Shown here piece by piece: positions 1 to 49,567 of a stretch of DNA of 64,000 bases. The notes under the pieces are model-generated. The model did not search any database. It worked only from the letters and a program-made list of their open reading frames with translations, and was not told the origin of the DNA. Location: assembly GCF_003790525.1 (NCBI RefSeq), contig NZ_CP033635.1; one strand, given 5' to 3'. This DNA is from Escherichia coli. Lineage in GTDB: Bacteria > Pseudomonadota > Gammaproteobacteria > Enterobacterales > Enterobacteriaceae. Numbering within the stretch: position 1 is the first letter of the stretch; each line of letters begins with the position of its first letter. The position numbers and the translations under genes were made by a program.

Positions 1-128
1 ATGATGCGATCGCCTTCTTCAATCATATTGAAGTCAGCAATGGCTTCGCCCACGTTACGACGCAGACGTTTTTGTAATTTGTTCAGATTGTATTGTTCTT
101 TCTTACTAATTTCTTGATTTTGCGACAT
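1..128 (-). CDS. ttcA: tRNA 2-thiocytidine biosynthesis protein TtcA, N-terminal part only (gene runs off the window edge)
   Basis: Reverse complement of 1..128 translates [42 protein letters not shown], which I recognise as the TtcA N-terminus; start codon is complement of 126..128. Confidence 0.8.
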
Positions 129-303
129 TTAAAAGCGACTCAATTCGTTATATGGCATCAGAAGAGTATGCGTCATGCCGGAACGCCCAGCATAAGAAAT
201 CTGATATAAAAACTGTGGCGTGTATGGTACGGATTAGAGGGGAAAATGTCAGCACATTTGCGAAATGAATCAAAAAGCCCGCAGCAATGTGCGGGCGTTA
301 GTG

Positions 304-819
<516 letters not shown>

Positions 820-842
820 TTAGATCAAAGGAGGAAGAATAA

Positions 843-871
843 GCAGAAAAAGCCCGCCATAACAGCGGGCA
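843..871 (-). terminator. intrinsic terminator downstream of ompN
   Basis: GC hairpin (gcccg...cgggc) followed on the minus strand by a U-run (plus-strand aaaaag), just past the ompN stop. Confidence 0.6.
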
Positions 872-878
872 GGAGGAT

Positions 879-1997
879 TTAGAACTGATAAACCAGACCT
901 AAAGCGACAATATCATCGGTAGAGATGCCGTTGGCAGCGTAGAAGCTGTCATCTTCATCCAACAGGTTGATTTTATAGTCAACGTAGGTGGACATATTTT
1001 TGTTGAAATAGTAAGTCGCGCCAACATCGGCGTATTTAACCAGATCTTTATCACCGTCGGTACCGACCAAATCCTTGCCTTTAGACATCAGGAAAGAGAC
1101 TGCCGGACGCAGCCCAAAATCGAACTGATACTGCGCAGTAACTTCAAAGTTCTGGGTTTTGTTGGCAATCGTATTTGTTGAATCACCGTAAGGTGTCATG
1201 TTACGCGTTTCAGAATACATGGTCGCCAGGTAGATATTGTTAGCATCGTATTTTGCCCCGGCAGTCCAGGCGTCAGCCTTATCGCCTTTTGCGGTAGAGA
1301 ATTCAGCCTGCTGGTTAGTGCGATCGGAGCTGGTATAGGCGGCACCAAAACTCATGCCCATACCTAAGTCGTAGGTAGTGGAGATGCCAAAACCGTCGCC
1401 ATTGGCGTTCTTAATGTTTCGATCACCACCGTTTGCGGTACCTTCTTGCTCATGGGTGACCTGGTTTTCATTCGCGCCCTGGTACTGTAACGCAAAATTC
1501 AGACCATCAACCAGACCGAAGAAATCAGTATTACGATAGGTTGCTACGCCATTGGCTCGACCGGTCATATAGTTATCGGCTTTGGTATAAGAGTCACCAC
1601 CGAATTCCGGTAGCATATCGGTCCAGCCTTCGATGTCGTACATTACGCCATAATTACGACCATAGTCGAATGAACCCAGGTCACCAAATTTCAGACCGGC
1701 AAAAGCAAGACGAGTCCAGGAATCACCTTTATCACCTTCAGAGCCATTAGCCTGCACGTTATATTCCCACTGGCCATACCCAACCAGTTGATCCGTGATT
1801 TGCGTTTCACCCTTAAAACCAAAACGCACGTAAGTTTGATCACCATCACTATTGGTATTATCAGAAAAATAATGCAGGCCATCAACTTTGCCATACAGAT
1901 CTAATTTGTTGCCGTCTTTATTATAAACTTCGGCTGCATGTGCAGCACCTGCGGCGAGCAGGGCAGGAATTAAAAGTGCCAGAACTTTGCTTTTCAT
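879..1997 (-). CDS. ompN: outer membrane porin N
   Basis: 372-aa ORF with signal peptide [21 protein letters not shown] and general-porin C-terminus ending in F; position between uspF and ydbK as in K-12. Confidence 0.9.
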
Positions 1998-2224
1998 TGA
2001 ATAAATCCTTTAGTTATTTTATTTGCCTTTTATCCCCATTTCGGGGAGTGAAAACATCCTAAAGGAGAAGTTCAGTTAGCCGATAAATATCATTTGTTAC
2101 GCCTTAAGTAAAACCTTAATCAAATAATTCCTCTGAAATGATAATAAGTCTGGTGAATGTATCGAAGATAATACATACAAAATAAAAATTATACTTTTAA
2201 TTTGCTATACGTTATTCTTCGCGG

Positions 2225-2333
2225 GTTATATGCCTTTATTGTCACAGATTTTATTTTCTGTTGGGCCATTGCATTGCCACTGATTTTCCAACATATAAAA
2301 AGACAAGCCCGAACAGTCGTCCGGGCTTTTTTT
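2225..2333 (+). ncRNA. micC: MicC small regulatory RNA (represses ompC)
   Basis: Sequence gttatatgcctttattgtcacagattttattttctg...gcccgaacagtcgtccgggctttttttt matches MicC as I remember it, including the terminator hairpin and T-run; lies in the ompN–ydbK intergenic region. Confidence 0.88.
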
Positions 2334-2362
2334 TAGAATTGGATAATCCTTATCCAGAGCAT

Positions 2363-5300
2363 TTAATCGGTGTTGCTTTTTTCCGCTTTTCCGGCCATTT
2401 GTGCCAGGAAGTCATAGCGTTTTTGCAAATCAGCTGCAGCATCTTTCCATAACTGTTCTGCCACTTCTGGCTGCTGCGAATTCAGACGACGGAAACGTTG
2501 CTCATGAAGTAACGTTTCTTCCAGTGCTTCTGACGGCGGGCGTGAATCCAGTGCCAGCGGCAGTTTGCCTTCATCGGCTCGACGTGGATCAAAGCGATAT
2601 AGCGGCCAGAAGCCGGTAGCAGTGAGTTGGCGCATCTGGTCGTGGCTGAGAGCCAGATCGTAACCATGCTCTTCACACGGGCTATAAGCAATGATCAGCG
2701 ATGGTCCCGGATACGCTTCCGCTTCCTGAATCGCTTTCACCGTCTGGTTCAGCTGCGCGCCGAGAGAAATCTGCGCCACATAAACATGACCGTACATCAT
2801 CATACTGACGCCAAGATCTTTACGCGCTTTACGTTTGCCGTGCTCGCCGAACTTAGTTACTGCACCCAGCGGTGTCGCTTTCGACGCCTGACCACCAGTG
2901 TTGGAATAGCATTGCGTATCCAGCACCAGAATGTTGACGTTTTCCGTCAGGCTCAATACATGATCCAGACCGCCAAAGCCAATATCGTAAGCCCAGCCAT
3001 CGCCACCAATCAGCCAGATTGATTTTTCCACCAGAGCATCTGCGTCACGCAGCAGTTCATGTGCTTCGGCAACATCGTTGAGTTGCTGGCGTAAAGCTGC
3101 AACCTGTTCACGACGAATCTCTGGCGTAGCGTCTGATTTCAACGCAGTCAGTAATTCCGCCGGGATTTTATCGGCAAATTGATCCAGCAGACGCAGCACG
3201 CGGACACGGTGTTGATCGACCGTAAGGCGGAAACCAAGGCCGAATTCGGCGTTATCTTCAAACAGCGAGTTCGCCCATGCCGGTCCACGACCGTTGGCAT
3301 CAGTGGTATATGGTGTGGAGGGCAGGTTACCACCATAAATTGAAGAACAACCCGTAGCGTTAGCGATCAACATCCGATCGCCATAGAGCTGAGTCAGCAA
3401 TTTAATATACGGCGTCTCGCCACAACCGGAGCAAGCACCGGAATATTCAAACAGCGGTGTAATCAGCTGTGATGTACGAATATCAATACGTTCCAGTTTG
3501 CTACGGTCGATTTCTGGCAGGTTGAGGAAGAAATCGTAATTGATTTTCTCTTCTTCGACATGTTCCAGCCGCGACATCATATTGATGGCTTTAATCTCTG
3601 GATTCTGACGGTCTTTCGCCGGGCAAACTTCGACGCACAGGTTACAACCGGTGCAATCTTCCGGAGCCACCTGCAAGACATATTTCTGCCCGCGCATATC
3701 ACGCGATTTCACATCCAGCGAATGCAGGCTGGCAGGGGCGTTTTCCATCGCTTCAGGCGGTACCACTTTTGCGCGAATAGCTGAGTGTGGGCAAGCAGCG
3801 ACGCAGTGGTTACATTGGGTACAGAGTTCCTCTTTCCAGATGGGGATCTCTTCGGCGATATTGCGTTTTTCCCAGCGCGTGGTGCCCATCGGCCAGGTGC
3901 CGTCTGGCGGCAGCGCCGAAACGGGGAGGGCATCACCAAGCCCGGCGAGCATCGCCGCGGTTACGGTTTTCACGAAATCAGGGGCGGCATCGGAAACCAC
4001 TGGCGGTCGATTGGCGCTGTGCGGATTTACTGGTTGCAGCGGAACTTCTTCTACGGATTCACGTGCCAGCGCCAGAGCCTGCCAGTTGCGCTCCACCAGA
4101 TCCTGACCTTTGCTACTGTAACTTTTGGCAATCGCACCCTGCAATTCTGCGAGGGCGCTATCGCCAGGCAGAATTTGCGTCAGATGGAAAAAAGCCATCT
4201 GCATGACGGTATTAATTCGGGCCGCCAGGCCACATTCGCGGGCGATTTTCGCCGCGTTAATCACATAGAAGCGCGCTTTTTTCTGGTTTAACACGGCCTG
4301 AACTTCCTGCGGCAAGCGCGACCACACTTCATCTGCGCTGTACGGCGTGTTGAGCAGGAAAATGCCGCCAGGTTTTAAACGCTCAACCATCTGATATTTG
4401 TCGATAAACTGCAACTGGTGGCAGCCAACAAAATCAGCCTGGGAAATCAGATAAGCGGAACGAATCGGCTGCTCGCTCACGCGAAGGTGAGAAACCGTCA
4501 GGCCGCCCGCCTTTTTGGAGTCGTAAACAAAATAGCCCTGTGCGTACCACGGCGTGGAATTACCGATAATCTTGATATTGTTTTTGGTCGCGGAAACGCT
4601 GCCATCACTACCAAGGCCATAAAACAAGGCTTCAAGTTTCGCCGAGTTTGGCAGGGTGTTTTCCGGCAACGGCAGTGACAGATTGGTCACATCATCGTAA
4701 ATACCAACCGTAAAGCGCGCTTTCGGTTTAGCCGCGTTGAGCTCGGCAAATACCGCCAGTACACAGTCCGGGCCAAATTCTTTGGATGAAAGACCATAGC
4801 GCCCACCAATGACACGGGGCAGGGTTTCGCGCTCGCCATTATTAAAGGCTTCTGCCAGTGCGGTCATCACATCCAGATAGAGCGGTTCTGCCTGGGCACC
4901 GGGTTCTTTGGTTCTGTCCAGTACCGCCACGCTGCGTACGGATCCCGGCAGAGCTTGTAGCAAGTGTTTGGCGGAGAAGGGACGGTACAGGCGAACTTTC
5001 AGCACGCCGACTTTTTCGCCACGGGTTAGCAATTCATCAACCACTTCTTCACAGGTGCCAATGGCTGAGCCCATCAGGATAATCACCCGTTCCGCTTGCG
5101 GATGCCCATAATACTCAAATGGCTGATACTGACGACCTGTCGCGGCAGCGAAATCATTCATCGCCTGTTCAACATGGTCATAGACCGCGTTGTACCAGGG
5201 GTTGGTGGCTTCGCGAGACTGGAAATAAGTGTCAGGATTGGCGGACGTACCGCGGATCACCGGATGTTCCGGGTTGAGCGCCCGGGCGCGATGAGCATCA

Positions 5301-5887
5301 ATTTCGGCCTGCGGCATGAGATCAAGAATAGTGTCATCGGCCAGCGGGACAATTTTATTGATTTCGTGGGACGTGCGGAAACCATCAAAGAAATGAATAA
5401 ATGGCACGCGGCTCTTCAGCGTTGCGATGTGCGAAATGAGAGCAAAGTCTTGCGCTTCCTGGACGTTAGCCGCACACAACATCGCGCAACCCGTCTGGCG
5501 CACCGCCATAACGTCGGAATGATCGCCAAAAATAGAGAGTGCATGTGTGGCAACGGTACGTGCCGCTACATGCAGGACAAACGGTGTGAGTTCGCCTGCC
5601 AGTTTGTACAGCGTCGGGATCATCAGCAGCAAACCCTGCGATGACGTAAACGATGTTGAAAGGGCACCCGTCTGCAAAGCGCCATGCACGGTAGCGATAG
5701 CACCCGCTTCCGACTGCATTTCAACCACGCGTGGTGTGTCTCCCCAAACGTTCTTCAAGCCGTTTCCGGCCCAGGCATCAGCCTGTTCTGCCATCGTGGA
5801 ACTGGGGGTAATAGGGTAGATGGCGATAACTTCACTGGTGCGAAACGCCACCGAAGCAACCGCGCCATTACCGTCAATAGTAATCAT
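2363..5887 (-). CDS. ydbK: pyruvate:flavodoxin/ferredoxin oxidoreductase (PFOR, NifJ-like)
   Basis: 1174-aa ORF; two ferredoxin-type 4Fe-4S motifs visible (CTQCNHCVAACP, CTGCNLCVEVCP); TPP-binding C-terminal region. Confidence 0.93.
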   Translation of the reverse strand: MITIDGNGAVASVAFRTSEVIAIYPITPSSTMAEQADAWAGNGLKNVWGDTPRVVEMQSEAGAIATVHGALQTGALSTSFTSSQGLLLMIPTLYKLAGELTPFVLHVAARTVATHALSIFGDHSDVMAVRQTGCAMLCAANVQEAQDFALISHIATLKSRVPFIHFFDGFRTSHEINKIVPLADDTILDLMPQAEIDAHRARALNPEHPVIRGTSANPDTYFQSREATNPWYNAVYDHVEQAMNDFAAATGRQYQPFEYYGHPQAERVIILMGSAIGTCEEVVDELLTRGEKVGVLKVRLYRPFSAKHLLQALPGSVRSVAVLDRTKEPGAQAEPLYLDVMTALAEAFNNGERETLPRVIGGRYGLSSKEFGPDCVLAVFAELNAAKPKARFTVGIYDDVTNLSLPLPENTLPNSAKLEALFYGLGSDGSVSATKNNIKIIGNSTPWYAQGYFVYDSKKAGGLTVSHLRVSEQPIRSAYLISQADFVGCHQLQFIDKYQMVERLKPGGIFLLNTPYSADEVWSRLPQEVQAVLNQKKARFYVINAAKIARECGLAARINTVMQMAFFHLTQILPGDSALAELQGAIAKSYSSKGQDLVERNWQALALARESVEEVPLQPVNPHSANRPPVVSDAAPDFVKTVTAAMLAGLGDALPVSALPPDGTWPMGTTRWEKRNIAEEIPIWKEELCTQCNHCVAACPHSAIRAKVVPPEAMENAPASLHSLDVKSRDMRGQKYVLQVAPEDCTGCNLCVEVCPAKDRQNPEIKAINMMSRLEHVEEEKINYDFFLNLPEIDRSKLERIDIRTSQLITPLFEYSGACSGCGETPYIKLLTQLYGDRMLIANATGCSSIYGGNLPSTPYTTDANGRGPAWANSLFEDNAEFGLGFRLTVDQHRVRVLRLLDQFADKIPAELLTALKSDATPEIRREQVAALRQQLNDVAEAHELLRDADALVEKSIWLIGGDGWAYDIGFGGLDHVLSLTENVNILVLDTQCYSNTGGQASKATPLGAVTKFGEHGKRKARKDLGVSMMMYGHVYVAQISLGAQLNQTVKAIQEAEAYPGPSLIIAYSPCEEHGYDLALSHDQMRQLTATGFWPLYRFDPRRADEGKLPLALDSRPPSEALEETLLHEQRFRRLNSQQPEVAEQLWKDAAADLQKRYDFLAQMAGKAEKSNTD

Positions 5888-6160
5888 ATGACACCCTTAC
5901 ATTGCGCAAATGAGGGGCGCACGAAATTGCTGCGCGCCCAGTAGTTATCTTTCAATTTTAGCAAATGGCTTTCTTCTGCATTTTCGCTTTTGTGTCCCCC
6001 ACATCAGCGTAATGAATGTTTTGATCAAACAGAGGGCAAAAAAATAGCCATAAAAAAGTAAAAATGCGGGGCAACGCGCAGGACAGCTCTCGACGCCGCC
6101 CTCTGTGCTGCCTATTATTTATGGCGGTGTCGTTTGGCTTGAAGATCAGAGGAAGAAAAG

Positions 6161-6427
6161 ATGCGAGCAGCGTTTTGGGTAGGGTGTGCCGCTTTATTAT
6201 TGTCGGCGTGTAGTAGTGAACCTGTTCAGCAGGCGACTGCGGCGCACGTAGCGCCAGGTTTAAAAGCGTCGATGTCCAGTAGTGGAGAAGCAAATTGTGC
6301 AATGATCGGCGGTTCGCTTTCTGTTGCCCGTCAACTGGATGGTACGGCGATTGGGATGTGTGCATTACCCAACGGCAAACGCTGTAGCGAACAGTCACTT
6401 GCCGCCGGGAGCTGTGGCAGCTATTAA
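6161..6427 (+). CDS. ydbJ: small lipoprotein (DUF333 family)
   Basis: 88-aa ORF with lipobox LLLSACSS; divergent from ydbK, convergent with hslJ. Confidence 0.8.
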   Translation: MRAAFWVGCAALLLSACSSEPVQQATAAHVAPGLKASMSSSGEANCAMIGGSLSVARQLDGTAIGMCALPNGKRCSEQSLAAGSCGSY

Positions 6428-6846
6428 TTCATTAAATCCGCCAGCTTATAAGTTAATGTCTGTTTCGCGGTCGCCAGCGTTAACTGGTTCGCGGTCAGAT
6501 CCACTTGTGCACCTTCTTTCAGCATTTCGCTAATGGTGTTATCGAGTTCATTAAGCTGCGGGTTAGCGCACATCATACGGGTCATTGCCAGTCCTTTGGC
6601 TGTCAGTTCACCATTAGACAGTTTGCCTTCACCGCTAAAGCGGTTACACATGCTGCCGGAAATCATCATCTTTTCACCAAAGCTGATTTCTGGCGGATTT
6701 TTATCGCTGGTCACGGGCTTACCGTTTACGCTTTCCAGCACAAAGCGATGATGCTGTAGCTGTTCTGGGGTTACAGCAATTTTGTCATTACTTACACATC
6801 CCGCCATCAGCAGGCTTAGCGCAACAAACGCGGCTACTTTCTTCAT
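6424..6846 (-). CDS. hslJ: heat-shock lipoprotein HslJ
   Basis: ORF track 6424..6858; likely start at MKKVAAFVALSLLMAGC (lipobox) giving 140 aa. Confidence 0.85.
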   Translation of the reverse strand: MKKVAAFVALSLLMAGCVSNDKIAVTPEQLQHHRFVLESVNGKPVTSDKNPPEISFGEKMMISGSMCNRFSGEGKLSNGELTAKGLAMTRMMCANPQLNELDNTISEMLKEGAQVDLTANQLTLATAKQTLTYKLADLMN

Positions 6847-6924
6847 TGTGGTTCTCAATTACAGTTTCTGACTCAGGACTATTTTAAGAATAGAGGATGA
6901 AAGGTCTTTGGGGATTATCTGAAT

Positions 6925-6950
6925 AAGCTCCCCTGGAATGCAGGGGAGCG
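6925..6950 (-). terminator. putative terminator hairpin downstream of ldhA
   Basis: Perfect 9-bp stem gctcccctg / caggggagc with 5-nt loop; U-rich stretch follows on the minus strand. Confidence 0.5.
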
Positions 6951-6956
6951 GCAAGA

Positions 6957-7946
6957 TTAAACCAGTTCGTTCGGGCAGGTTTCGCCTTTTTCCAGATTGC
7001 TTAAGTTTTGCAGCGTAGTCTGAGAAATACTGGTCAGTGCTTCTGCTGTCAGGAATGCCTGGTGCCCGGTAAACAGCACGTTGTGGCAGGCAGACAGACG
7101 ACGGAATACGTCATCCTGGATCACGTCGTTGGATTTGTCTTCAAAGAACAGATCGCGTTCGTTCTCATACACGTCCATACCCAACGAACCAATTTTCTGA
7201 TTTTTCAGCGCTTCAATTGCTGCCTGAGAATTAATCAATGCACCGCGACTGGTATTGACGATCATCACGCCATTTTTCATCTGATCGAAGGCGGCTTCGT
7301 TCAACAGATGATAGTTTTCCGGTGTCAGCGGGCAGTGCAGAGAGATAACGTCTGATTCAGAGAACAGGGTTGGCAGATCGACATACTCCACACCGAGTTC
7401 CAGCGCCGCCGCACTTGGATACGGATCGAACGCCAGCAGACGCATACCAAAACCTTTCAGAATGCGCAGCATCGCCACACCGATTTTACCAGTACCGATA
7501 ACGCCTGCCGTTTTGCCATACATAGTAAAGCCGGTCAGACCTTCCAGAGAGAAGTTGGCGTCACGGGTACGCTGATACGCGCGGTGAATACGGCGGTTCA
7601 GCGTCATCATCATACCGATGGCATGTTCAGCAACGGCTTCTGGATCATAGGCTGGAACACGGACTACTTTCAGCCCCAGTTCTTTTGCCGCGTCAAGGTC
7701 GACGTTATTGAAACCGGCACAGCGCAGGGCGATATATTTAACGCCGTGCTTTTTCAGCTCTTCCAGCACCGGGCGGCTGCCGTCATCGTTTACGAAAATA
7801 CATACCGCTTCGCAGCCATTGGCAGTTTTAGCGGTTTTTTCCGTCAGCAGAAAGTCAAAAAATTCCAGCTCAAAGCCAAAGGACTCGTTCACCTGTTGCA
7901 GGTACTTCTTGTCGTACTGTTTTGTGCTATAAACGGCGAGTTTCAT
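6957..7946 (-). CDS. ldhA: fermentative D-lactate dehydrogenase (NAD-dependent)
   Basis: 329-aa ORF starting MKLAVYSTKQYDKKYLQQVNE; 2-hydroxyacid dehydrogenase family with NAD-binding GxGxxG (GTGKIG). Confidence 0.93.
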   Translation of the reverse strand: MKLAVYSTKQYDKKYLQQVNESFGFELEFFDFLLTEKTAKTANGCEAVCIFVNDDGSRPVLEELKKHGVKYIALRCAGFNNVDLDAAKELGLKVVRVPAYDPEAVAEHAIGMMMTLNRRIHRAYQRTRDANFSLEGLTGFTMYGKTAGVIGTGKIGVAMLRILKGFGMRLLAFDPYPSAAALELGVEYVDLPTLFSESDVISLHCPLTPENYHLLNEAAFDQMKNGVMIVNTSRGALINSQAAIEALKNQKIGSLGMDVYENERDLFFEDKSNDVIQDDVFRRLSACHNVLFTGHQAFLTAEALTSISQTTLQNLSNLEKGETCPNELV

Positions 7947-8153
7947 AAGACTTTCTCCAGTGATGTTGAATCACATTTAAGCTACTAAAAATATTTTACA
8001 AAATTTCAAATATAATTGAAAGCTATGGCGATATTGAAAAATTCATCAACAACTATGCTTAGTGTAGGCGCAACCTTCAACTGAACGGTTAAACATGCCA
8101 CAATACCCGTATTGAATGCTTAATTTTTCGCTAAATCAGGATATTAACTACCC

Positions 8154-10793
8154 ATGCTGGGTAAATATAAAGCCGTTCTCGCGCTGTTATTACTGATTAT
8201 TCTTGTGCCGTTGACGCTGCTGATGACGCTCGGGCTGTGGGTTCCTACGCTGGCGGGCATCTGGCTACCGCTCGGGACACGTATTGCATTAGATGAAAGC
8301 CCACGCATTACGCGTAAAGGTTTAATCATTCCCGATCTCCGTTATCTGGTGGGAGATTGTCAGCTTGCGCATATCACCAACGCCAGCCTTTCACATCCCA
8401 GCCGCTGGTTATTGAACGTCGGCACGGTAGAACTTGATTCTGCTTGTCTGGCGAAATTGCCGCAGACGGAGCAATCGCCAGCCGCTCCAAAAACCCTCGC
8501 GCAGTGGCAGGCCATGTTGCCTAACACCTGGATCAATATCGATAAACTGATTTTTTCTCCCTGGCAGGAATGGCAGGGAAAACTCTCTCTCGCATTAACC
8601 TCCGATATCCAGCAACTGCGTTATCAGGGCGAAAAAGTTAAATTTCAAGGCCAGCTGAAAGGGCAACAACTTACAGTCAGCGAACTGGATGTCGTCGCGT
8701 TTGAAAATCAGCCGCCGGTTAAACTGGTGGGGGAATTTACTATGCCGCTCGTGCCGGATGGACTTCCGGTAAGTGGGCATGCTACTGCGACGTTAAACTT
8801 GCCGCAGGAACCGTCACTGGTGGATGCAGAGCTGGACTGGCAGGAAAATAGCGGGCAATTGATCGTGCTGGCACGGGATAACGGCGATCCGTTGCTCGAT
8901 TTGCCGTGGCAAATTACTCGTCAACAATTGACCGTAAGCGATGGTCGCTGGAGCTGGCCGTATGCAGGTTTTCCTTTGAGTGGCCGACTGGGTGTCAAAG
9001 TCGACAACTGGCAGGCAGGGCTCGAGAACGCTCTGGTCAGCGGACGACTGAGTGTGCTGACCCAGGGGCAAGCGGGTAAGGGCAACGCGGTGCTTAATTT
9101 TGGCCCAGGAAAATTAAGCATGGATAACAGCCAGCTGCCTATGCAACTGACCGGTGAAGCGAAACAGGCGGACCTCATTTTATATGCCCGTTTACCTGCG
9201 CAGCTAAGTGGAAGTCTGTCTGACCCAACGTTGACCTTTGAGCCAGGCGCGTTACTTCGTTCAAAGGGAAGAGTCATTGATTCGCTGGACATCGATGAAA
9301 TCCGCTGGCCTTTAGCGGGTGTAAAAGTCACCCAACGTGGTATTGACGGACGTTTGCAGGCCATTTTGCAGGCGCATGAAAATGAACTGGGCGATTTCGT
9401 GCTGCATATGGATGGACTGGCGAATGATTTTCTCCCTGACGCTGGCCGCTGGCAGTGGCGCTACTGGGGAAAAGGCAGTTTTACACCGATGAATGCCACC
9501 TGGGATGTCGCAGGAAAGGGTGAGTGGCATGACAGCACGATTACGCTGACCGATCTCTCCACCGGTTTCGACCAGTTACAATACGGTACGATGACGGTAG
9601 AAAAGCCGCGACTAATTCTCGACAAGCCCGTCGTCTGGGTACGTGACGCACAGCATCCCTCCTTTAGCGGCGCGCTGTCACTGGACGCCGGGCAAACGCT
9701 GTTCACTGGCGGCAGTGTGTTACCGCCATCGACCTTAAAATTTAGCGTCGATGGACGCGATCCGACGTATTTCCTCTTTAAAGGCGATTTACATGCTGGT
9801 GAGATTGGCCCGGTTCGGGTAAATGGTCGCTGGGACGGTATTCGTCTGCGCGGTAACGCCTGGTGGCCTAAACAATCACTGACCGTATTCCAGCCGCTGG
9901 TGCCACCCGACTGGAAGATGAACTTACGCGATGGCGAACTATATGCCCAGGTCGCATTTTCTGCTGCGCCTGAACAAGGATTCCGCGCGGGAGGGCACGG
10001 CGTGTTGAAAGGCGGTAGTGCCTGGATGCCAGATAATCAGGTTAACGGTGTCGATTTTGTCCTGCCTTTCCGTTTTGCCGATGGAGCCTGGCATCTGGGG
10101 ACTCGCGGCCCCGTTACGTTGCGAATTGCCGAAGTGATTAATCTGGTGACAGCGAAAAATATTACGGCTGATTTGCAAGGGCGTTATCCGTGGAGTGAAG
10201 ACGAACCATTGTTGTTGACCGATGTTAGCGTCGATGTGTTAGGCGGTAACGTGCTGATGAAACAATTACGTATGCCGCAACATGACCCGGCGCTGTTGCG
10301 GCTGAATAATCTTTCCTCCAGCGAACTGGTTAGCGCCGTCAATCCGAAACAATTCGCCATGTCCGGGGCATTTAGTGGTGCATTGCCGTTATGGCTAAAC
10401 AACGAAAAATGGATAGTGAAAGATGGTTGGCTGGCAAATAGCGGGCCAATGACCTTGCGGCTGGATAAAGACACCGCAGATGCGGTGGTGAAAGACAATA
10501 TGACTGCGGGTTCAGCAATTAACTGGTTGCGCTATATGGAAATTAGCCGTTCATCGACAAAAATTAATTTAGATAATCTCGGTTTATTAACCATGCAGGC
10601 CAACATTACAGGTACCAGTCGCGTTGATGGTAAAAGCGGTACGGTAAATCTTAATTACCATCATGAAGAGAATATTTTTACGCTGTGGCGCAGTTTACGC
10701 TTTGGCGATAATCTCCAGGCATGGTTGGAGCAGAACGCACGTCTGCCGGGAAATGACTGTCCGCAAGGAAAAGAGTGTGAGGAAAAACAATGA
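8154..10793 (+). CDS. ydbH: AsmA-family inner-membrane-anchored protein (TamB/YhdP paralogue)
   Basis: 879-aa ORF with N-terminal TM anchor (MLGKYKAVLALLLLIILVPLTLLM); 4-nt ATGA overlap with ynbE. Confidence 0.88.
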   Translation: MLGKYKAVLALLLLIILVPLTLLMTLGLWVPTLAGIWLPLGTRIALDESPRITRKGLIIPDLRYLVGDCQLAHITNASLSHPSRWLLNVGTVELDSACLAKLPQTEQSPAAPKTLAQWQAMLPNTWINIDKLIFSPWQEWQGKLSLALTSDIQQLRYQGEKVKFQGQLKGQQLTVSELDVVAFENQPPVKLVGEFTMPLVPDGLPVSGHATATLNLPQEPSLVDAELDWQENSGQLIVLARDNGDPLLDLPWQITRQQLTVSDGRWSWPYAGFPLSGRLGVKVDNWQAGLENALVSGRLSVLTQGQAGKGNAVLNFGPGKLSMDNSQLPMQLTGEAKQADLILYARLPAQLSGSLSDPTLTFEPGALLRSKGRVIDSLDIDEIRWPLAGVKVTQRGIDGRLQAILQAHENELGDFVLHMDGLANDFLPDAGRWQWRYWGKGSFTPMNATWDVAGKGEWHDSTITLTDLSTGFDQLQYGTMTVEKPRLILDKPVVWVRDAQHPSFSGALSLDAGQTLFTGGSVLPPSTLKFSVDGRDPTYFLFKGDLHAGEIGPVRVNGRWDGIRLRGNAWWPKQSLTVFQPLVPPDWKMNLRDGELYAQVAFSAAPEQGFRAGGHGVLKGGSAWMPDNQVNGVDFVLPFRFADGAWHLGTRGPVTLRIAEVINLVTAKNITADLQGRYPWSEDEPLLLTDVSVDVLGGNVLMKQLRMPQHDPALLRLNNLSSSELVSAVNPKQFAMSGAFSGALPLWLNNEKWIVKDGWLANSGPMTLRLDKDTADAVVKDNMTAGSAINWLRYMEISRSSTKINLDNLGLLTMQANITGTSRVDGKSGTVNLNYHHEENIFTLWRSLRFGDNLQAWLEQNARLPGNDCPQGKECEEKQ

Positions 10794-10975
10794 AAATTTT
10801 ACTGGCTGCGTTGACGTCATCTTTTATGCTGGTTGGCTGTACGCCTCGCATTGAAGTCGCTGCCCCTAAGGAACCGATCACTATCAATATGAACGTTAAA
10901 ATTGAGCATGAGATCATCATCAAGGCAGACAAAGATGTCGAAGAGCTGCTTGAGACCCGTAGCGATCTTTTTTGA
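10790..10975 (+). CDS. ynbE: small lipoprotein YnbE
   Basis: 61-aa ORF with lipobox (MLVGCTP); start overlaps the ydbH stop. Confidence 0.85.
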   Translation: MKILLAALTSSFMLVGCTPRIEVAAPKEPITINMNVKIEHEIIIKADKDVEELLETRSDLF

Positions 10976-10979
10976 GGTG

Positions 10980-21324: not shown

Positions 21325-21930
21325 ATGACGCTCTACCAGATAAAACCGCTCTTTCAGTCGCTGTTAAGGCCGACGATGTTTTGGCTTAATAAGCACCATG
21401 TTACAGCGAATCACATCACTCTTGCTGCACTGGCGCTTTCTCTTCTTACCGGATTGCTGTTGATGTTGGTGGCACAACCCATCCTCTTTTTGCTATTGCC
21501 TATCGTGCTTTTTATCCGTATGGCGCTCAATGCGCTGGATGGCATGATGGCGCGTGAGTGCAATCAGCAAACACGTCTTGGGGCGATTTTGAATGAAACT
21601 GGCGATGTTATTTCCGATATTGCGCTTTATTTACCGTTTTTATTTTTACCGGAAAGTAACGCATCACTCGTAATACTCATGTTATTTTGCACCATATTAA
21701 CTGAGTTTTGCGGTTTACTCGCGCAGACGATTAACGGTATTCGCAGTTATGCCGGTCCATTCGGCAAAAGCGATCGTGCGTTAATATTTGGGTTGTGGGG
21801 GCTGGCTGTTGCCATTTATCCACAGTGGATGCAATGGAATAATCTTTTATGGAGCATTGCTTCAATTTTGCTTCTCTGGACTGCGATTAATCGTTGTCGA
21901 AGTGTGCTCCTGATGAGTGCTGAAAGATAA
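21325..21930 (+). CDS. ynbA: CDP-alcohol phosphatidyltransferase-family membrane protein
   Basis: ORF track 21319..21930; start chosen at the MTLYQIKPLF Met to give 201 aa; motif DGMMARE...GDVISD resembles the CDP-alcohol phosphatidyltransferase signature. Confidence 0.8.
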   Translation: MTLYQIKPLFQSLLRPTMFWLNKHHVTANHITLAALALSLLTGLLLMLVAQPILFLLLPIVLFIRMALNALDGMMARECNQQTRLGAILNETGDVISDIALYLPFLFLPESNASLVILMLFCTILTEFCGLLAQTINGIRSYAGPFGKSDRALIFGLWGLAVAIYPQWMQWNNLLWSIASILLLWTAINRCRSVLLMSAER

Positions 21931-22826
21931 TGCTGGAAAAATCTCTGGCAACACTTTTCGCGTTGTTAATTTTAGCAACGCTGATAAACCGTTTTCTGAT
22001 ATGGCGGTTACCGGAGGGAAAAGGGGGTGAGGTTACATTACGTATTCGTACCTGGTGGGGCATCGTCATTTGTTTTTCAATGGTGATTTCAGGTCCACGC
22101 TGGATGACGTTGACGTTTTTTGCGCTGATAAGTTTTCTGGCATTGAAAGAATATTGTACGCTTATATCCGTACATTTTCCGCGTTGGTTATATTGGGGTA
22201 TTCCTCTTAACTATTTGCTTATCGGTTTTAATTGCTTTGAGCTGTTTCTGTTATTTATACCTTTGGCTGGGTTTCTGATATTAGCCACCTGGCGAGTTTT
22301 AGTGGGTGACCCCTCTGGTTTTCTGCATACCGTGAGTGCCATTTTTTGTGGCTGGATAATGACCGTTTTCGCCTTGAGTCATGCCGCCTGGTTATTAATG
22401 TTGCCAACCACAAATATCCAGGGCGGGGCGTTACTGGTGTTATTTCTTTTGGCGTTAACCGAGTCAAACGATATTGCACAGTATTTATGGGGAAAATCCT
22501 GCGGCAGAAGAAAAGTGGTCCCCAAAGTCAGCCCGGGAAAAACACTGGAAGGTCTGATGGGCGGCGTAATCACCACCATGATAGCGTCGATGATCATTGG
22601 ACCGTTATTGACACCCTTAAACGCCTGGCAGGCATTATTGGCGGGGTTACTGATTGGGGTAAGTGGTTTTTGCGGCGATGTAGTGATGTCAGCCATCAAA
22701 CGAGATATTGGTGTTAAAGATAGTGGAAAACTATTACCAGGACATGGCGGACTCCTTGACAGGATTGACTCATTAATTTTCACCGCTCCGGTATTTTTTT
22801 ATTTTATTCGCTACTGCTGTTACTGA
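21930..22826 (+). CDS. ynbB: CdsA-like phosphatidate cytidylyltransferase-family membrane protein
   Basis: 298-aa polytopic ORF; start overlaps the ynbA stop (TAATG); C-terminal region resembles CdsA. Confidence 0.8.
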   Translation: MLEKSLATLFALLILATLINRFLIWRLPEGKGGEVTLRIRTWWGIVICFSMVISGPRWMTLTFFALISFLALKEYCTLISVHFPRWLYWGIPLNYLLIGFNCFELFLLFIPLAGFLILATWRVLVGDPSGFLHTVSAIFCGWIMTVFALSHAAWLLMLPTTNIQGGALLVLFLLALTESNDIAQYLWGKSCGRRKVVPKVSPGKTLEGLMGGVITTMIASMIIGPLLTPLNAWQALLAGLLIGVSGFCGDVVMSAIKRDIGVKDSGKLLPGHGGLLDRIDSLIFTAPVFFYFIRYCCY

Positions 22827-33416: not shown

Positions 33417-34418
33417 TCAGAGTTTAGCGAATTTTTCGAGGGTGCGAATGAGCTGTGTGACGAAGCCATATTCGTTATCGTACCAGGCGACCGTTTTCAC
33501 CAGTTGTAAATCGCCCACGGCGGTAATTTCCGTTTGCGTGGCATCAAACACCGAACCGAAATGGCTGCCAATGATATCGGAAGAGACTATTTCTTCATCG
33601 GTATAACCAAATGACTCGTTATTGGTGGTTGCTTGTTTAAGTGCGTTATTCACCTCTTCGGCAGTCACTTTTTTTCCGAGAATGGACACCAGCTCAGTGA
33701 CCGAACCTGTTTTCACCGGCACGCGTTGCGCATGACCTTTCAGTTTGCCGCTCAGTTCCGGGATCACCAGACCAATGGCTTTTGCCGCACCTGTAGTGTG
33801 GGGAATGATATTTTCTGCCGCTGCACGTGAAGCGCGTAGATCTTTACCTCGCGGACCATCCACCAGTGACTGAGTGCCGGTATAGGCATGAATGGTCGTC
33901 ATCGTGCCGACTTCTATTCCGAAACTGTCGTGCAAGGCTTTGGCCATCGGTGCAAGACAGTTAGTGGTGCATGACGCCACGGAAACAATGGTGTCGTTGC
34001 CATCCAGTGTGTCGTCATTGACGTTATAAACGATGGTTTTCATTTCACCGGCAGGGGCGGAAATCAACACCTTCTTCGCACCAGCATCAAGGTGCGCCTG
34101 CGATTTCTCGGCGGAGGTATAAAAGCCAGTACATTCGACAATGATTTCTGCGCCTTTCGCTTTCCATGGAATATTTTTAGCCTCTTTTTCGGCGTAAACC
34201 GCGATACTTTTTCCATCAACGATAAGTGAATCTTCCGTAAAATCAACGCTCCAGGGGAACGGTCCGTAGTTTGAATCATGTTTCAACAGGTAGGCGAGAA
34301 TTTTTGGGGAAGTGAGATCATTAATAGCAACAATGTCTATGTTGCTTTTGACTTCAAGTAATCGACGCAACACCAGTCGACCGATACGACCAAAACCGTT
34401 AATACCAACTTTACTCAT
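33417..34418 (-). CDS. gapC: glyceraldehyde-3-phosphate dehydrogenase paralogue, intact ORF
   Basis: 333-aa uninterrupted ORF; NAD-binding [10 protein letters not shown] and active-site SCTTNCLAP present. Confidence 0.88.
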
Positions 34419-46837: not shown

Positions 46838-46868
46838 GACGCGCCATCGTTAGATGGCGCTTTTTATT
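46838..46868 (+). terminator. intrinsic terminator of ydcL
   Basis: gcgccatc gtta gatggcgc hairpin followed by TTTTT; the T-run overlaps the ydcO stop codon on the other strand. Confidence 0.8.
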
Positions 46869-47156
46869 ATCGGTTTCTGTCAGCGATTAAATTCAACACC
46901 ACGTAACAAACGCCTCCGGCAATTAATCCCCAAAACGCAGAACCAATCCCGACCAGCGTCAATCCACTTGCCGTTACCAGAAATGCCACCACCGCCGCGT
47001 CGCGCTCACGCTCATTATGCAGCGCCTGATACAAACTGCCGCCAATGGTACTCAACAGCGCCAGACCTGCCAGCATCTGGATCCAACTTACGGGCAGGGT
47101 AGTCATCATCCCGGTAATGGCACTACCAAACAGACCTGCGAGCAAATAGAAAATGC

Positions 47157-47168
47157 CTGCAACGGCAG
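47157..47168. repeat. left copy of 12-bp target-site duplication CTGCAACGGCAG
   Basis: Identical 12-mer directly abuts both IS4 ends. Confidence 0.85.
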
Positions 47169-48593
47169 TAATGCCGATCAGTTAAGGATCAGTTGACCGA
47201 TCCAGTGGCTGTGTAAGAATCCGGAAACGCTCACTTGTTTCCGGATTTTTTATGCACATTGGACAGGCTCTTGATCTGGTATCCCGTTACGATTCTCTGC
47301 GTAACCCACTGACTTCTCTGGGGGATTACCTCGACCCCGAACTCATCTCTCGTTGCCTTGCCGAATCAGGTACTGTAACGCTACGCAAGCGCCGTCTTCC
47401 CCTCGAAATGATGGTCTGGTGTATTGTTGGCATGGCGCTTGAGCGTAAAGAACCTCTTCACCAGATTGTGAATCGCCTGGACATCATGCTGCCGGGCAAT
47501 CGCCCCTTCGTTGCCCCCAGTGCCGTTATTCAGGCCCGCCAGCGCCTGGGAAGTGAGGCTGTCCGCCGCGTGTTCACGAAAACAGCGCAGCTCTGGCATA
47601 ACGCCACGCCGCATCCGCACTGGTGCGGCCTGACCCTGCTGGCCATCGATGGTGTGTTCTGGCGCACACCGGATACACCAGAGAACGATGCAGCCTTCCC
47701 CCGCCAGACACATGCCGGGAACCCGGCGCTCTACCCGCAGGTCAAAATGGTCTGCCAGATGGAACTGACCAGCCATCTGCTGACGGCTGCAGCCTTCGGC
47801 ACGATGAAGAACAGCGAAAATGAGCTTGCTGAGCAACTTATAGAACAAACCGGCGATAACACTCTGACGTTAATGGATAAAGGTTATTACTCACTGGGAC
47901 TGTTAAATGCCTGGAGCCTGGCGGGAGAACACCGCCACTGGATGATACCTCTCAGAAAGGGAGCGCAATATGAAGAGATCAGAAAACTGGGTAAAGGCGA
48001 TCATCTGGTGAAGCTGAAAACCAGCCCGCAGGCACGAAAAAAGTGGCCGGGACTGGGAAATGAAGTGACAGCCCGCCTGCTGACCGTGACGCGCAAAGGA
48101 AAAGTCTGCCATCTGCTGACGTCGATGACGGACGCCATGCGCTTCCCCGGAGGAGAAATGGCGGATCTGTACAGTCATCGCTGGGAAATCGAACTGGGAT
48201 ACAGGGAGATAAAACAGACGATGCAACTGAGCAGGCTGACGCTGAGAAGTAAAAAACCGGAGCTTGTGGAGCAAGAGCTGTGGGGTGTCTTACTGGCTTA
48301 TAATCTGGTGAGATATCAGATGATTAAAATGGCAGAACATCTGAAAGGTTACTGGCCGAATCAACTGAGTTTCTCAGAATCATGTGGAATGGTGATGAGA
48401 ATGCTGATGACATTGCAGGGCGCTTCACCGGGACGTATACCGGAGCTGATGCGCGATCTTGCAAGTATGGGACAACTTGTGAAATTACCGACAAGAAGGG
48501 AAAGGGCCTTCCCGAGAGTGGTAAAGGAGAGGCCCTGGAAATACCCCACAGCCCCGAAAAAGAGCCAGTCAGTTGCTTAACTGACTGGCATTA
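47169..48593 (+). mobile_element. insertion sequence IS4 (about 1425 bp)
   Basis: Imperfect 18-bp terminal inverted repeats (TAATGCCGATCAGTTAAG left; TAATGCCAGTCAGTTAAG at right, reverse-complemented), a single 442-aa transposase ORF, and flanking 12-bp direct repeats. Confidence 0.92.
47252..48580 (+). CDS. insG: IS4 transposase (DDE family)
   Basis: 442-aa ORF starting [35 protein letters not shown]; contains the IS4-family YREIK motif ([14 protein letters not shown]). Confidence 0.92.
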
Positions 48594-48605
48594 CTGCAAC
48601 GGCAG
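48594..48605. repeat. right copy of 12-bp target-site duplication CTGCAACGGCAG
   Basis: Identical to 47157..47168. Confidence 0.85.
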
Positions 48606-49567
48606 CGGCCAGCCAACGTTGATCTTTATCCGGATGCGCTTCCGGGCTTTGGCAAATAGCCGCGGTGATTGCCGCAATACCGACGGAATAAACGCCGAAA
48701 GGGGAAAAAACCAGTGCCAGCAATCCAGTAAATACAATTAATGGCGAAACAGGAGCCGAATATCCGGCTGCTTTCATTGCTGCGATACCCGGTGCGTTTT
48801 GCGATGCCATCGTCACCAGAAAAAGGGGGAGTGCAACGCTCAGGCTGTGAGCAAACGAAAAATCAGGGCTAATATAAGTGGGGAGAACGGGTTTAAAGAC
48901 AACATCAGTTGTGACAATGTCACCTTGCGCGATAACGATCACGACCCCAATAATCATCGCGGCAATTACCGCATAGCGCGGCGCAACGGCCCTGGTTGCC
49001 AGCCATACCAGCAACATACTGCCACACAACGTAAATTGACCATCCAGGCTCGCAAACGCCTGTAAACCAAAGCGTAATAAAATCCCGGCAAGCATTGCCG
49101 CCGCAAGCGAGTGCGGAATAATGCGCATCAGATGAGCAAAGAGTCCCGTTATGCCGCAGAGGACTATTAACGCGTTGGTGACAATAAAAACGCCGATGGT
49201 TTCGTTAAGTGTTAGTCCCTGCAATCCGGTGACCAACAAAGCCGCGCCAGGCGTTGACCATGCGGTGAGAACAGGTACGCGATACCATAATGTCAGAGCC
49301 AGCGTACTGACGCCCATTGCCAGCCCCAGCGCCGTCATCCAGCCAGAGATTTGTGCAGTGGTGGCTCCGGCGACAATCGCTGCTTGCCAGATTATTGCCG
49401 CTGAACTGGCGTAGCCAATTAATACCGCCAGAAACCCCGCCAGTAGCGTGGGTGGAGGAATAGAAAACAGACGCATAGTCACCTCGTGCGTTATAGCGTA
49501 CAGGCACCGTAGCATTTGTCCGTTATAACGCACAAGTGATAAACTTCCGTTTTGCCGGAGGAGTCGC

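Follow-up and report, generated by a model that had tools for sequence, protein, structure and literature searches.

The first 303 nucleotides of the analysed window, a stretch of 64,000 nucleotides of Escherichia coli DNA, contain the 5' end of ttcA and the short spacer up to its direct neighbour uspF, and are best explained as an intact attB of the Rac-type lambdoid phages, situated in the 5' part of ttcA and unoccupied in this near-SMS-3-5 strain (we put the probability of this reading at about 0.93). An empty Rac-type attB in ttcA is an ordinary polymorphism that is already known and was published in 2015.

Rac-type phages integrate by means of IntR, a tyrosine integrase, which recombines a 26-bp core in codons 9-17 of ttcA with its counterpart in attP. 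The first 17 codons of ttcA are also present on the phage, as an imperfect copy. Once the phage has integrated, ttcA remains intact, but its N-terminus (MQENQQITKK in the case of K-12) and the DNA upstream of it come from the phage, and the original codons 1-17 together with their upstream region are displaced to the distal prophage end, beside uspF, as the ttcC pseudogene. In the window this integration has either never occurred or been exactly reversed, and ttcA has its chromosomal codons 1-8, its own 175-bp upstream region and uspF as its neighbour.

Organization of the ttcA-uspF locus

The features of the locus are listed in Table 1. The window contains the first 42 codons of ttcA and two further nucleotides, with the start codon at 126-128. 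The opening codons, read from the reverse complement of window 1..128, are ATG TCG CAA AAT CAA GAA ATT AGT AAG AAA. This part of the gene is 96.7% identical to K-12 ttcA on the DNA level over window 1..121. Its translation matches positions 5-44 of the NCBIfam TtcA equivalog model with an E-value of 4e-11 and 42.7 bits, a score obtained by 42 codons only and to be read against a whole-protein cut-off of 272. The full TtcA protein of SMS-3-5 (311 aa) has six residue differences from K-12 TtcA, at residues 2, 3, 6, 8, 95 and 290. The UspF protein is 99.3% identical to K-12 UspF, and its score of 303.3 bits is above the NCBIfam UspF equivalog cut-off of 166.

Table 1. Features identified at the ttcA-uspF locus (window coordinates)
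Feature	Position	Strand	Evidence
ttcA 5' end, tRNA 2-thiocytidine(32) synthetase	1..128	-	translation, K-12 identity, NCBIfam, SMS-3-5 annotation
Predicted attB core of Rac-type IntR integrases, 26 bp, TTGTTCAGATTGTATTGTTCTTTCTT	79..104	.	K-12 attL/attR identity; Rac-SA53 attP annotation; megablast breaks at 79
ttcA codons 1-8, segment swapped by Rac-type phages for their own copy	105..128	-	0 mismatches to K-12 attR/ttcC side
uspF-ttcA spacer, 175 bp, without foreign DNA	129..303	.	collinear with K-12 ttcC-uspF spacer
Terminator-like hairpin 3' of uspF, GCCCGCACATTGCTGCGGGC then TTTTTG	277..296	-	7-pair stem, 6 G-C pairs, T-run
uspF, universal stress protein F, 144 aa	304..738	-	NCBIfam, K-12 identity

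The initial annotation described ttcA as directly adjoining uspF at a distance of about 175 bp, and the spacer is indeed exactly 175 bp long. Beyond uspF, the window continues with ompN, micC and ydbK, the same gene order as to the right of Rac in K-12. The 64-kb window aligns with the reverse complement of the SMS-3-5 genome (NC_010498.1, about 1730633-1794632) with three SNPs and one single-base indel, and in the RefSeq annotation of SMS-3-5 ttcA likewise adjoins uspF. Another strain, E. coli 2016C-3878, is 100% identical to the window over positions 1-900 but only 96.75% identical over positions 1-11294, and was rejected as the strain of the window.

The native ttcA promoter is presumably located within 129-303. 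A single consensus promoter match, weak and not above the shuffled expectation, was found in the spacer (minus strand 252..224, CTGACA-17-TACCAT); the promoter consensus scan of the K-12 attL / intR 3' region gave no match. An Rfam scan of window 1-3000 at E<=1 gave no RNA element in 1-303, its sole hit being MicC at 2222-2342.

Comparison with the Rac junctions of K-12 MG1655

In MG1655, ttcA is located at 1411013..1411948 and uspF at 1435185..1435619. The interval annotated as 'cryptic prophage Rac' (1411899..1434958) and the 51-nt ttcC pseudogene (1434958..1435008) lie between them, in agreement with the earlier statement that K-12 has Rac and ttcC at this place. The distance from the ttcA start to the uspF stop is 23,236 bp in K-12 and 175 bp in the window. 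An equally short K-12 interval would have contradicted the initial annotation; at 23.2 kb it is nothing of the kind. The annotation had also placed ynaE between ttcA and uspF in K-12, which is correct, and beside Rac, which is not, as ynaE sits inside the annotated Rac interval.

A base-by-base three-way alignment showed that window 1-104 is identical to the ttcA/attL side of K-12 except at position 87, with no difference at all in 1-78. Window 79-211 is identical to the ttcC/attR side of K-12, again except at position 87 and with no difference in 105-211. The match to the attR side runs on to uspF (position 303) past one extra A in K-12, where the ttcC-uspF spacer is 176 bp long compared with 175 bp in the window.

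The K-12 attL and attR are identical to each other over exactly window 79-104 (TTGTTCAGGTTGTATTGTTCTTTCTT). Beyond this core they retain imperfect homology, with seven mismatches, to position 129. The 26-bp core spans ttcA coding nucleotides 25-50, which belong to codons 9-17. Window 105-125, located immediately next to the core, has seven mismatches relative to the attL side of K-12 and none relative to the attR/ttcC side. The core of the window matches the K-12 core at 25 of 26 positions, the difference being an A for G at 87, which is synonymous in an Asn codon. Since window 1-104 corresponds to the attL side and window 79-303 to the attR side, the window has exactly the attB sequence expected from recombination between attL and attR. 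The alignment to ttcA, ttcC and the att junctions of K-12 proposed in the initial annotation thus gives an unoccupied attB with the core at 79-104, and no observation speaks against this structural reading.

Origin of the TtcA N-terminus

The TtcA N-terminus in the window is identical to that encoded by K-12 ttcC at 17 of 17 residues and at 49 of 51 nucleotides, and both nucleotide differences are synonymous. The Rac-supplied N-terminus of K-12, MQENQQITKK, differs from the window form at residues 2, 3, 6 and 8. The ttcC match, the lack of a match to MQENQQITKK and the outgroup support bear out the earlier claim that the N-terminus is native rather than Rac-supplied. These data support the view that the MS-type N-terminus of the window is the chromosomal form and that the MQ forms are phage-supplied.

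The location of Rac between ttcA and ttcC in K-12 was described by Liu et al. (2015, Sci Rep 5:16074, PMC4632033). In that work, Rac excision altered four N-terminal residues of TtcA, resulting in a variant termed TtcA' (PMC4632033). The TtcA' N-terminus is shared by strains without a rac-like prophage and was named the 'ancient copy' by Liu et al. (PMC4632033). The TtcA variants differ in fitness under carbenicillin, the TtcA' form being linked to lower fitness (PMC4632033). These findings on Rac and ttcA were restated in a 2019 review (PMC6379469).

Occupancy of the site in complete E. coli genomes

An empty, uninterrupted ttcA-uspF junction, defined as window 1-303 covered by at least 80% in one piece, was found in 2,488 of 5,426 complete E. 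coli genomes (46%). The site is occupied in 2,908 of these genomes (54%), as judged by the K-12-type ttcA-intR junction with the K-12 attL junction used as the query. The empty and occupied counts sum to 5,396 of the 5,426 genomes.

Megablast matches in occupied genomes stop at window 79. The genomes with a break at this position and an intact attR/ttcC side number about 1,863 (34%), calculated as the 4,351 genomes with at least 80% coverage of window 1-900 minus the 2,488 empty ones. In about 1,045 genomes (19%; 2,908 minus 1,863) the attR/ttcC side is lost, and the match breaks at window 232. These decayed remnants at ttcA, present in about 19% of genomes, consist of an integrase fragment and assorted pseudogenes, with the attR/ttcC side deleted up to window 232. 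As a result of this deletion, the phage-supplied TtcA N-terminus is locked in. For example, in strain 83972 (NZ_CP058220.1, locus 20129-22453) the interval from ttcA to uspF contains pseudogenes, among them a 231-nt integrase fragment, and TtcA retains MQENQQITKK. We take strains 83972 and CFT073 to be close B2 relatives. A remnant state like that of 83972 probably explains the 'exception' that CFT073 represents in the data of Liu et al. (PMC4632033).

The abundance of such attR-deleted remnants raises the question of whether the short ttcA-uspF interval of the window could itself be the product of deletion of a decayed prophage, as in the B2 strains, rather than an intact attB. About 1,045 E. 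coli genomes, 83972 with its break at window 232 among them, demonstrate that deletions of this kind happen. The remnants, however, keep MQENQQITKK and an intR fragment, whereas the window has the chromosomal N-terminus, and its spacer is collinear with the K-12 ttcC-uspF spacer throughout. A deletion origin of the short interval is hardly credible in the light of the alignment, and we rejected it in favour of an intact attB.

Usability and history of the site

The G>A difference at position 87 of the core might, in principle, make integration less efficient. In its extreme form, this argument holds that the window has an attB look-alike made unusable by a substitution that blocks strand exchange, the strain being refractory to Rac-type integration. 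Tyrosine integrases require identity in the overlap, and the core of the window does have one mismatch to that of K-12 among its 26 positions. An occupied genome with the same allele argues the other way. Strain 22AR0750 (NZ_CP195454.1, about 2551079-2604983) has a Rac-like prophage of about 54 kb with intR, xisR, recET, kilR, and head and tail genes. Over the whole of window 79-303, A87 included, the attR of this full-length prophage shows 100% identity, which would mean that the core allele of the window has already served in an integration; the attL core of the prophage has G87. This pattern would be expected if a phage with G87 had entered an attB with A87 and strand exchange had taken place to the left of 87, within 79-86, the leftmost 8 bp of the core. 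In addition, the Rac-SA53 core has three further differences in its central part, which the phage tolerates. We consequently regard an unusable site as very improbable and infer from the junction sequences that the A87 core allele of the window would be a functional integration target. The use of A87 as a marker of refractory sites was considered and rejected, the same allele being present at the attR of a lysogen, 22AR0750.

The history of the site can have followed either of two courses. A Rac-like prophage may once have been present and been precisely excised by IntR and XisR, in which case the N-terminus should be called 'restored' and not 'pre-integration'. In K-12, precisely this TtcA' sequence is restored when Rac excises (Liu et al. 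2015, PMC4632033). Moreover, with approximately 54% of E. coli genomes occupied, gain and loss must be frequent, and one occupied strain has the A87 core allele at its attR. On the other hand, the annotation of the near-identical SMS-3-5 reveals no Rac-derived DNA across the 64-kb window, and scarless excision is an event about which the sequence favours neither side; it concerns the history of the locus only and leaves its identity unchanged. We consider past occupancy a possible but rather unlikely history. Never-occupied and excised sites are not separable from sequence, since precise excision leaves no scar. The word 'pre-integration' in the initial annotation is therefore justified as far as it denotes the chromosomal ttcC form, but not as a statement on history, as precise excision yields the identical sequence.

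Under either history of the unoccupied attB, the strain has no Rac at ttcA and consequently does not have the recET, kilR, ralR and trkG genes that Rac carries there. The strain is a potential recipient for Rac-type phages, and it has the TtcA variant that was tied by Liu et al. to lower fitness under carbenicillin (PMC4632033).

Related integration systems

The closest known system is the Rac site of K-12. The two have in common the target gene, the position of the 26-bp core, and residues 2, 3, 6 and 8, which in the window are those of the post-excision TtcA'; the neighbouring genes uspF, ompN and ydbK are the same as on the attR side of K-12. In contrast to K-12, the window has the synonymous G>A at 87 and comes from a natural SMS-3-5-type isolate, not from cured K-12.

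The target core of several Rac-like phages was found in the window, namely of Rac-SA53 (KU052037), CP-933R and Sp10 of O157:H7, and vB_EcoS-683R6. In Rac-SA53 (KU052037), the same 26 positions are annotated as attP, beside intR and a ttcA fragment. The Rac-like phages at ttcA carry intR/xisR beside a mimic of the ttcA 5' end; the window itself contains no DNA of these phages. Each of these phages brings its own N-terminal variant, for instance MQENQKNTKKEIYNLNK in the case of Rac-SA53.

The e14 element integrated in icd is similar in principle: one end of icd is duplicated in its attP, so that icd remains functional, with a pseudo-copy at the opposite junction (PMC6379469). The difference is that e14 swaps the 3' end of icd, whereas Rac swaps the 5' end of ttcA plus upstream regulatory DNA. 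More broadly, ttcA exemplifies the rewriting of the 5' end of a host gene by prophages, with phage-supplied TtcA N-termini and integrase scars in many genera; our observations extend the published work and overturn none of it.

TtcA N-termini and integrases across Enterobacterales

A degenerate-codon scan with one genome per species yielded at least 120 ttcA loci. From the loci listed, we used the 87 whose N-terminus could be read and whose upstream sequence extended over 450 nt or more. Among these listed loci, a gene or gene fragment of an IntR homologue ending about 50 nt upstream of the ATG was observed at 36 of the 47 MQ-type loci and at 3 of the 29 MS-type loci; conversely, the upstream integrase is absent from 11 of 47 MQ-type and 26 of 29 MS-type loci. 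The contrast between MQ and MS types gives a Fisher p of 1.3e-8, a value uncorrected for phylogeny. A full-length integrase is present at 8 of the 87 loci, seven of these being MQ-type.

The same contrast is observed within single genera. Enterobacter has 13 MQ-type loci with an integrase versus four MS-type loci without it, and the respective numbers in Serratia are three and three. It is also seen inside Pluralibacter, Superficieibacter and Pantoea. In Kosakonia cowanii and Escherichia sp. E1V33, the first ten TtcA residues are identical to those in the window and the integrase is absent; in E1V33, ttcA is also adjacent to uspF.

Taken together, we tentatively favour a joint reading in which the 5' end of ttcA is an Enterobacterales-wide hotspot for IntR, the differences between species within TtcA residues 1-8 are for the most part phage leftovers after prophage decay, the MS type is ancestral, and about 19% of E. 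coli have permanently fixed the phage version via loss of attR.

The taxonomic range of the upstream homologues is broad. IntR homologues, as genes or short fragments, were found about 50 nt upstream of ttcA in many genera, among them Enterobacter, Salmonella, Klebsiella, Serratia, Pantoea, Erwinia, Dickeya, Brenneria, Mixta and Symbiopectobacterium.

Other features of the window

The ompN gene (879-1997, minus strand, 372 aa) encodes a protein with 82% identity to K-12 OmpN, compared with 99% for the flanking uspF and ydbK. Its product is named OmpC-subfamily by both NCBIfam and RefSeq. Window 1-2400 is matched at 99% or more in 35 of the 5,426 complete E. coli genomes and at 95-99% in eight; nearly all others match at 80-95%. 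This distribution suggests that the ompN allele is a rare porin allele, either imported or diversified. Between ompN and ydbK, the small RNA micC (2222-2342, plus strand) is found at its K-12 position (Rfam RF00121, 125 bits, E=9e-21).

The block feaR-feaB-tynA-paaZ-paaA..K-paaXY, about 19 kb long in K-12, is missing between ydbL and the ydbA homologue (window approximately 11295-17718). The ydbA homologue (11764-17718, plus strand) encodes an intact autotransporter of 1,984 aa, whereas in K-12 insertions of IS2 and IS30 disrupt ydbA.

The ydbD gene (18844-21155, plus strand) reads as two separate ORFs (18844-19590 and 19590-21155) due to one A missing from an A-run near 19549-19554 relative to the RefSeq sequence of SMS-3-5, in which the gene is intact (2,307 nt). 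Either the reading frame is truly shifted, or the indel reflects a sequencing difference in the homopolymer. The ydcO gene, encoding a BenE-family transporter, is interrupted by an IS4 element at approximately 46867-49515, with the transposase ORF at 47252-48580 on the plus strand. The gapC gene for a type I glyceraldehyde-3-phosphate dehydrogenase (33417-34418, minus strand) is an intact ORF in the window; in K-12 it is, as we take it, a pseudogene.
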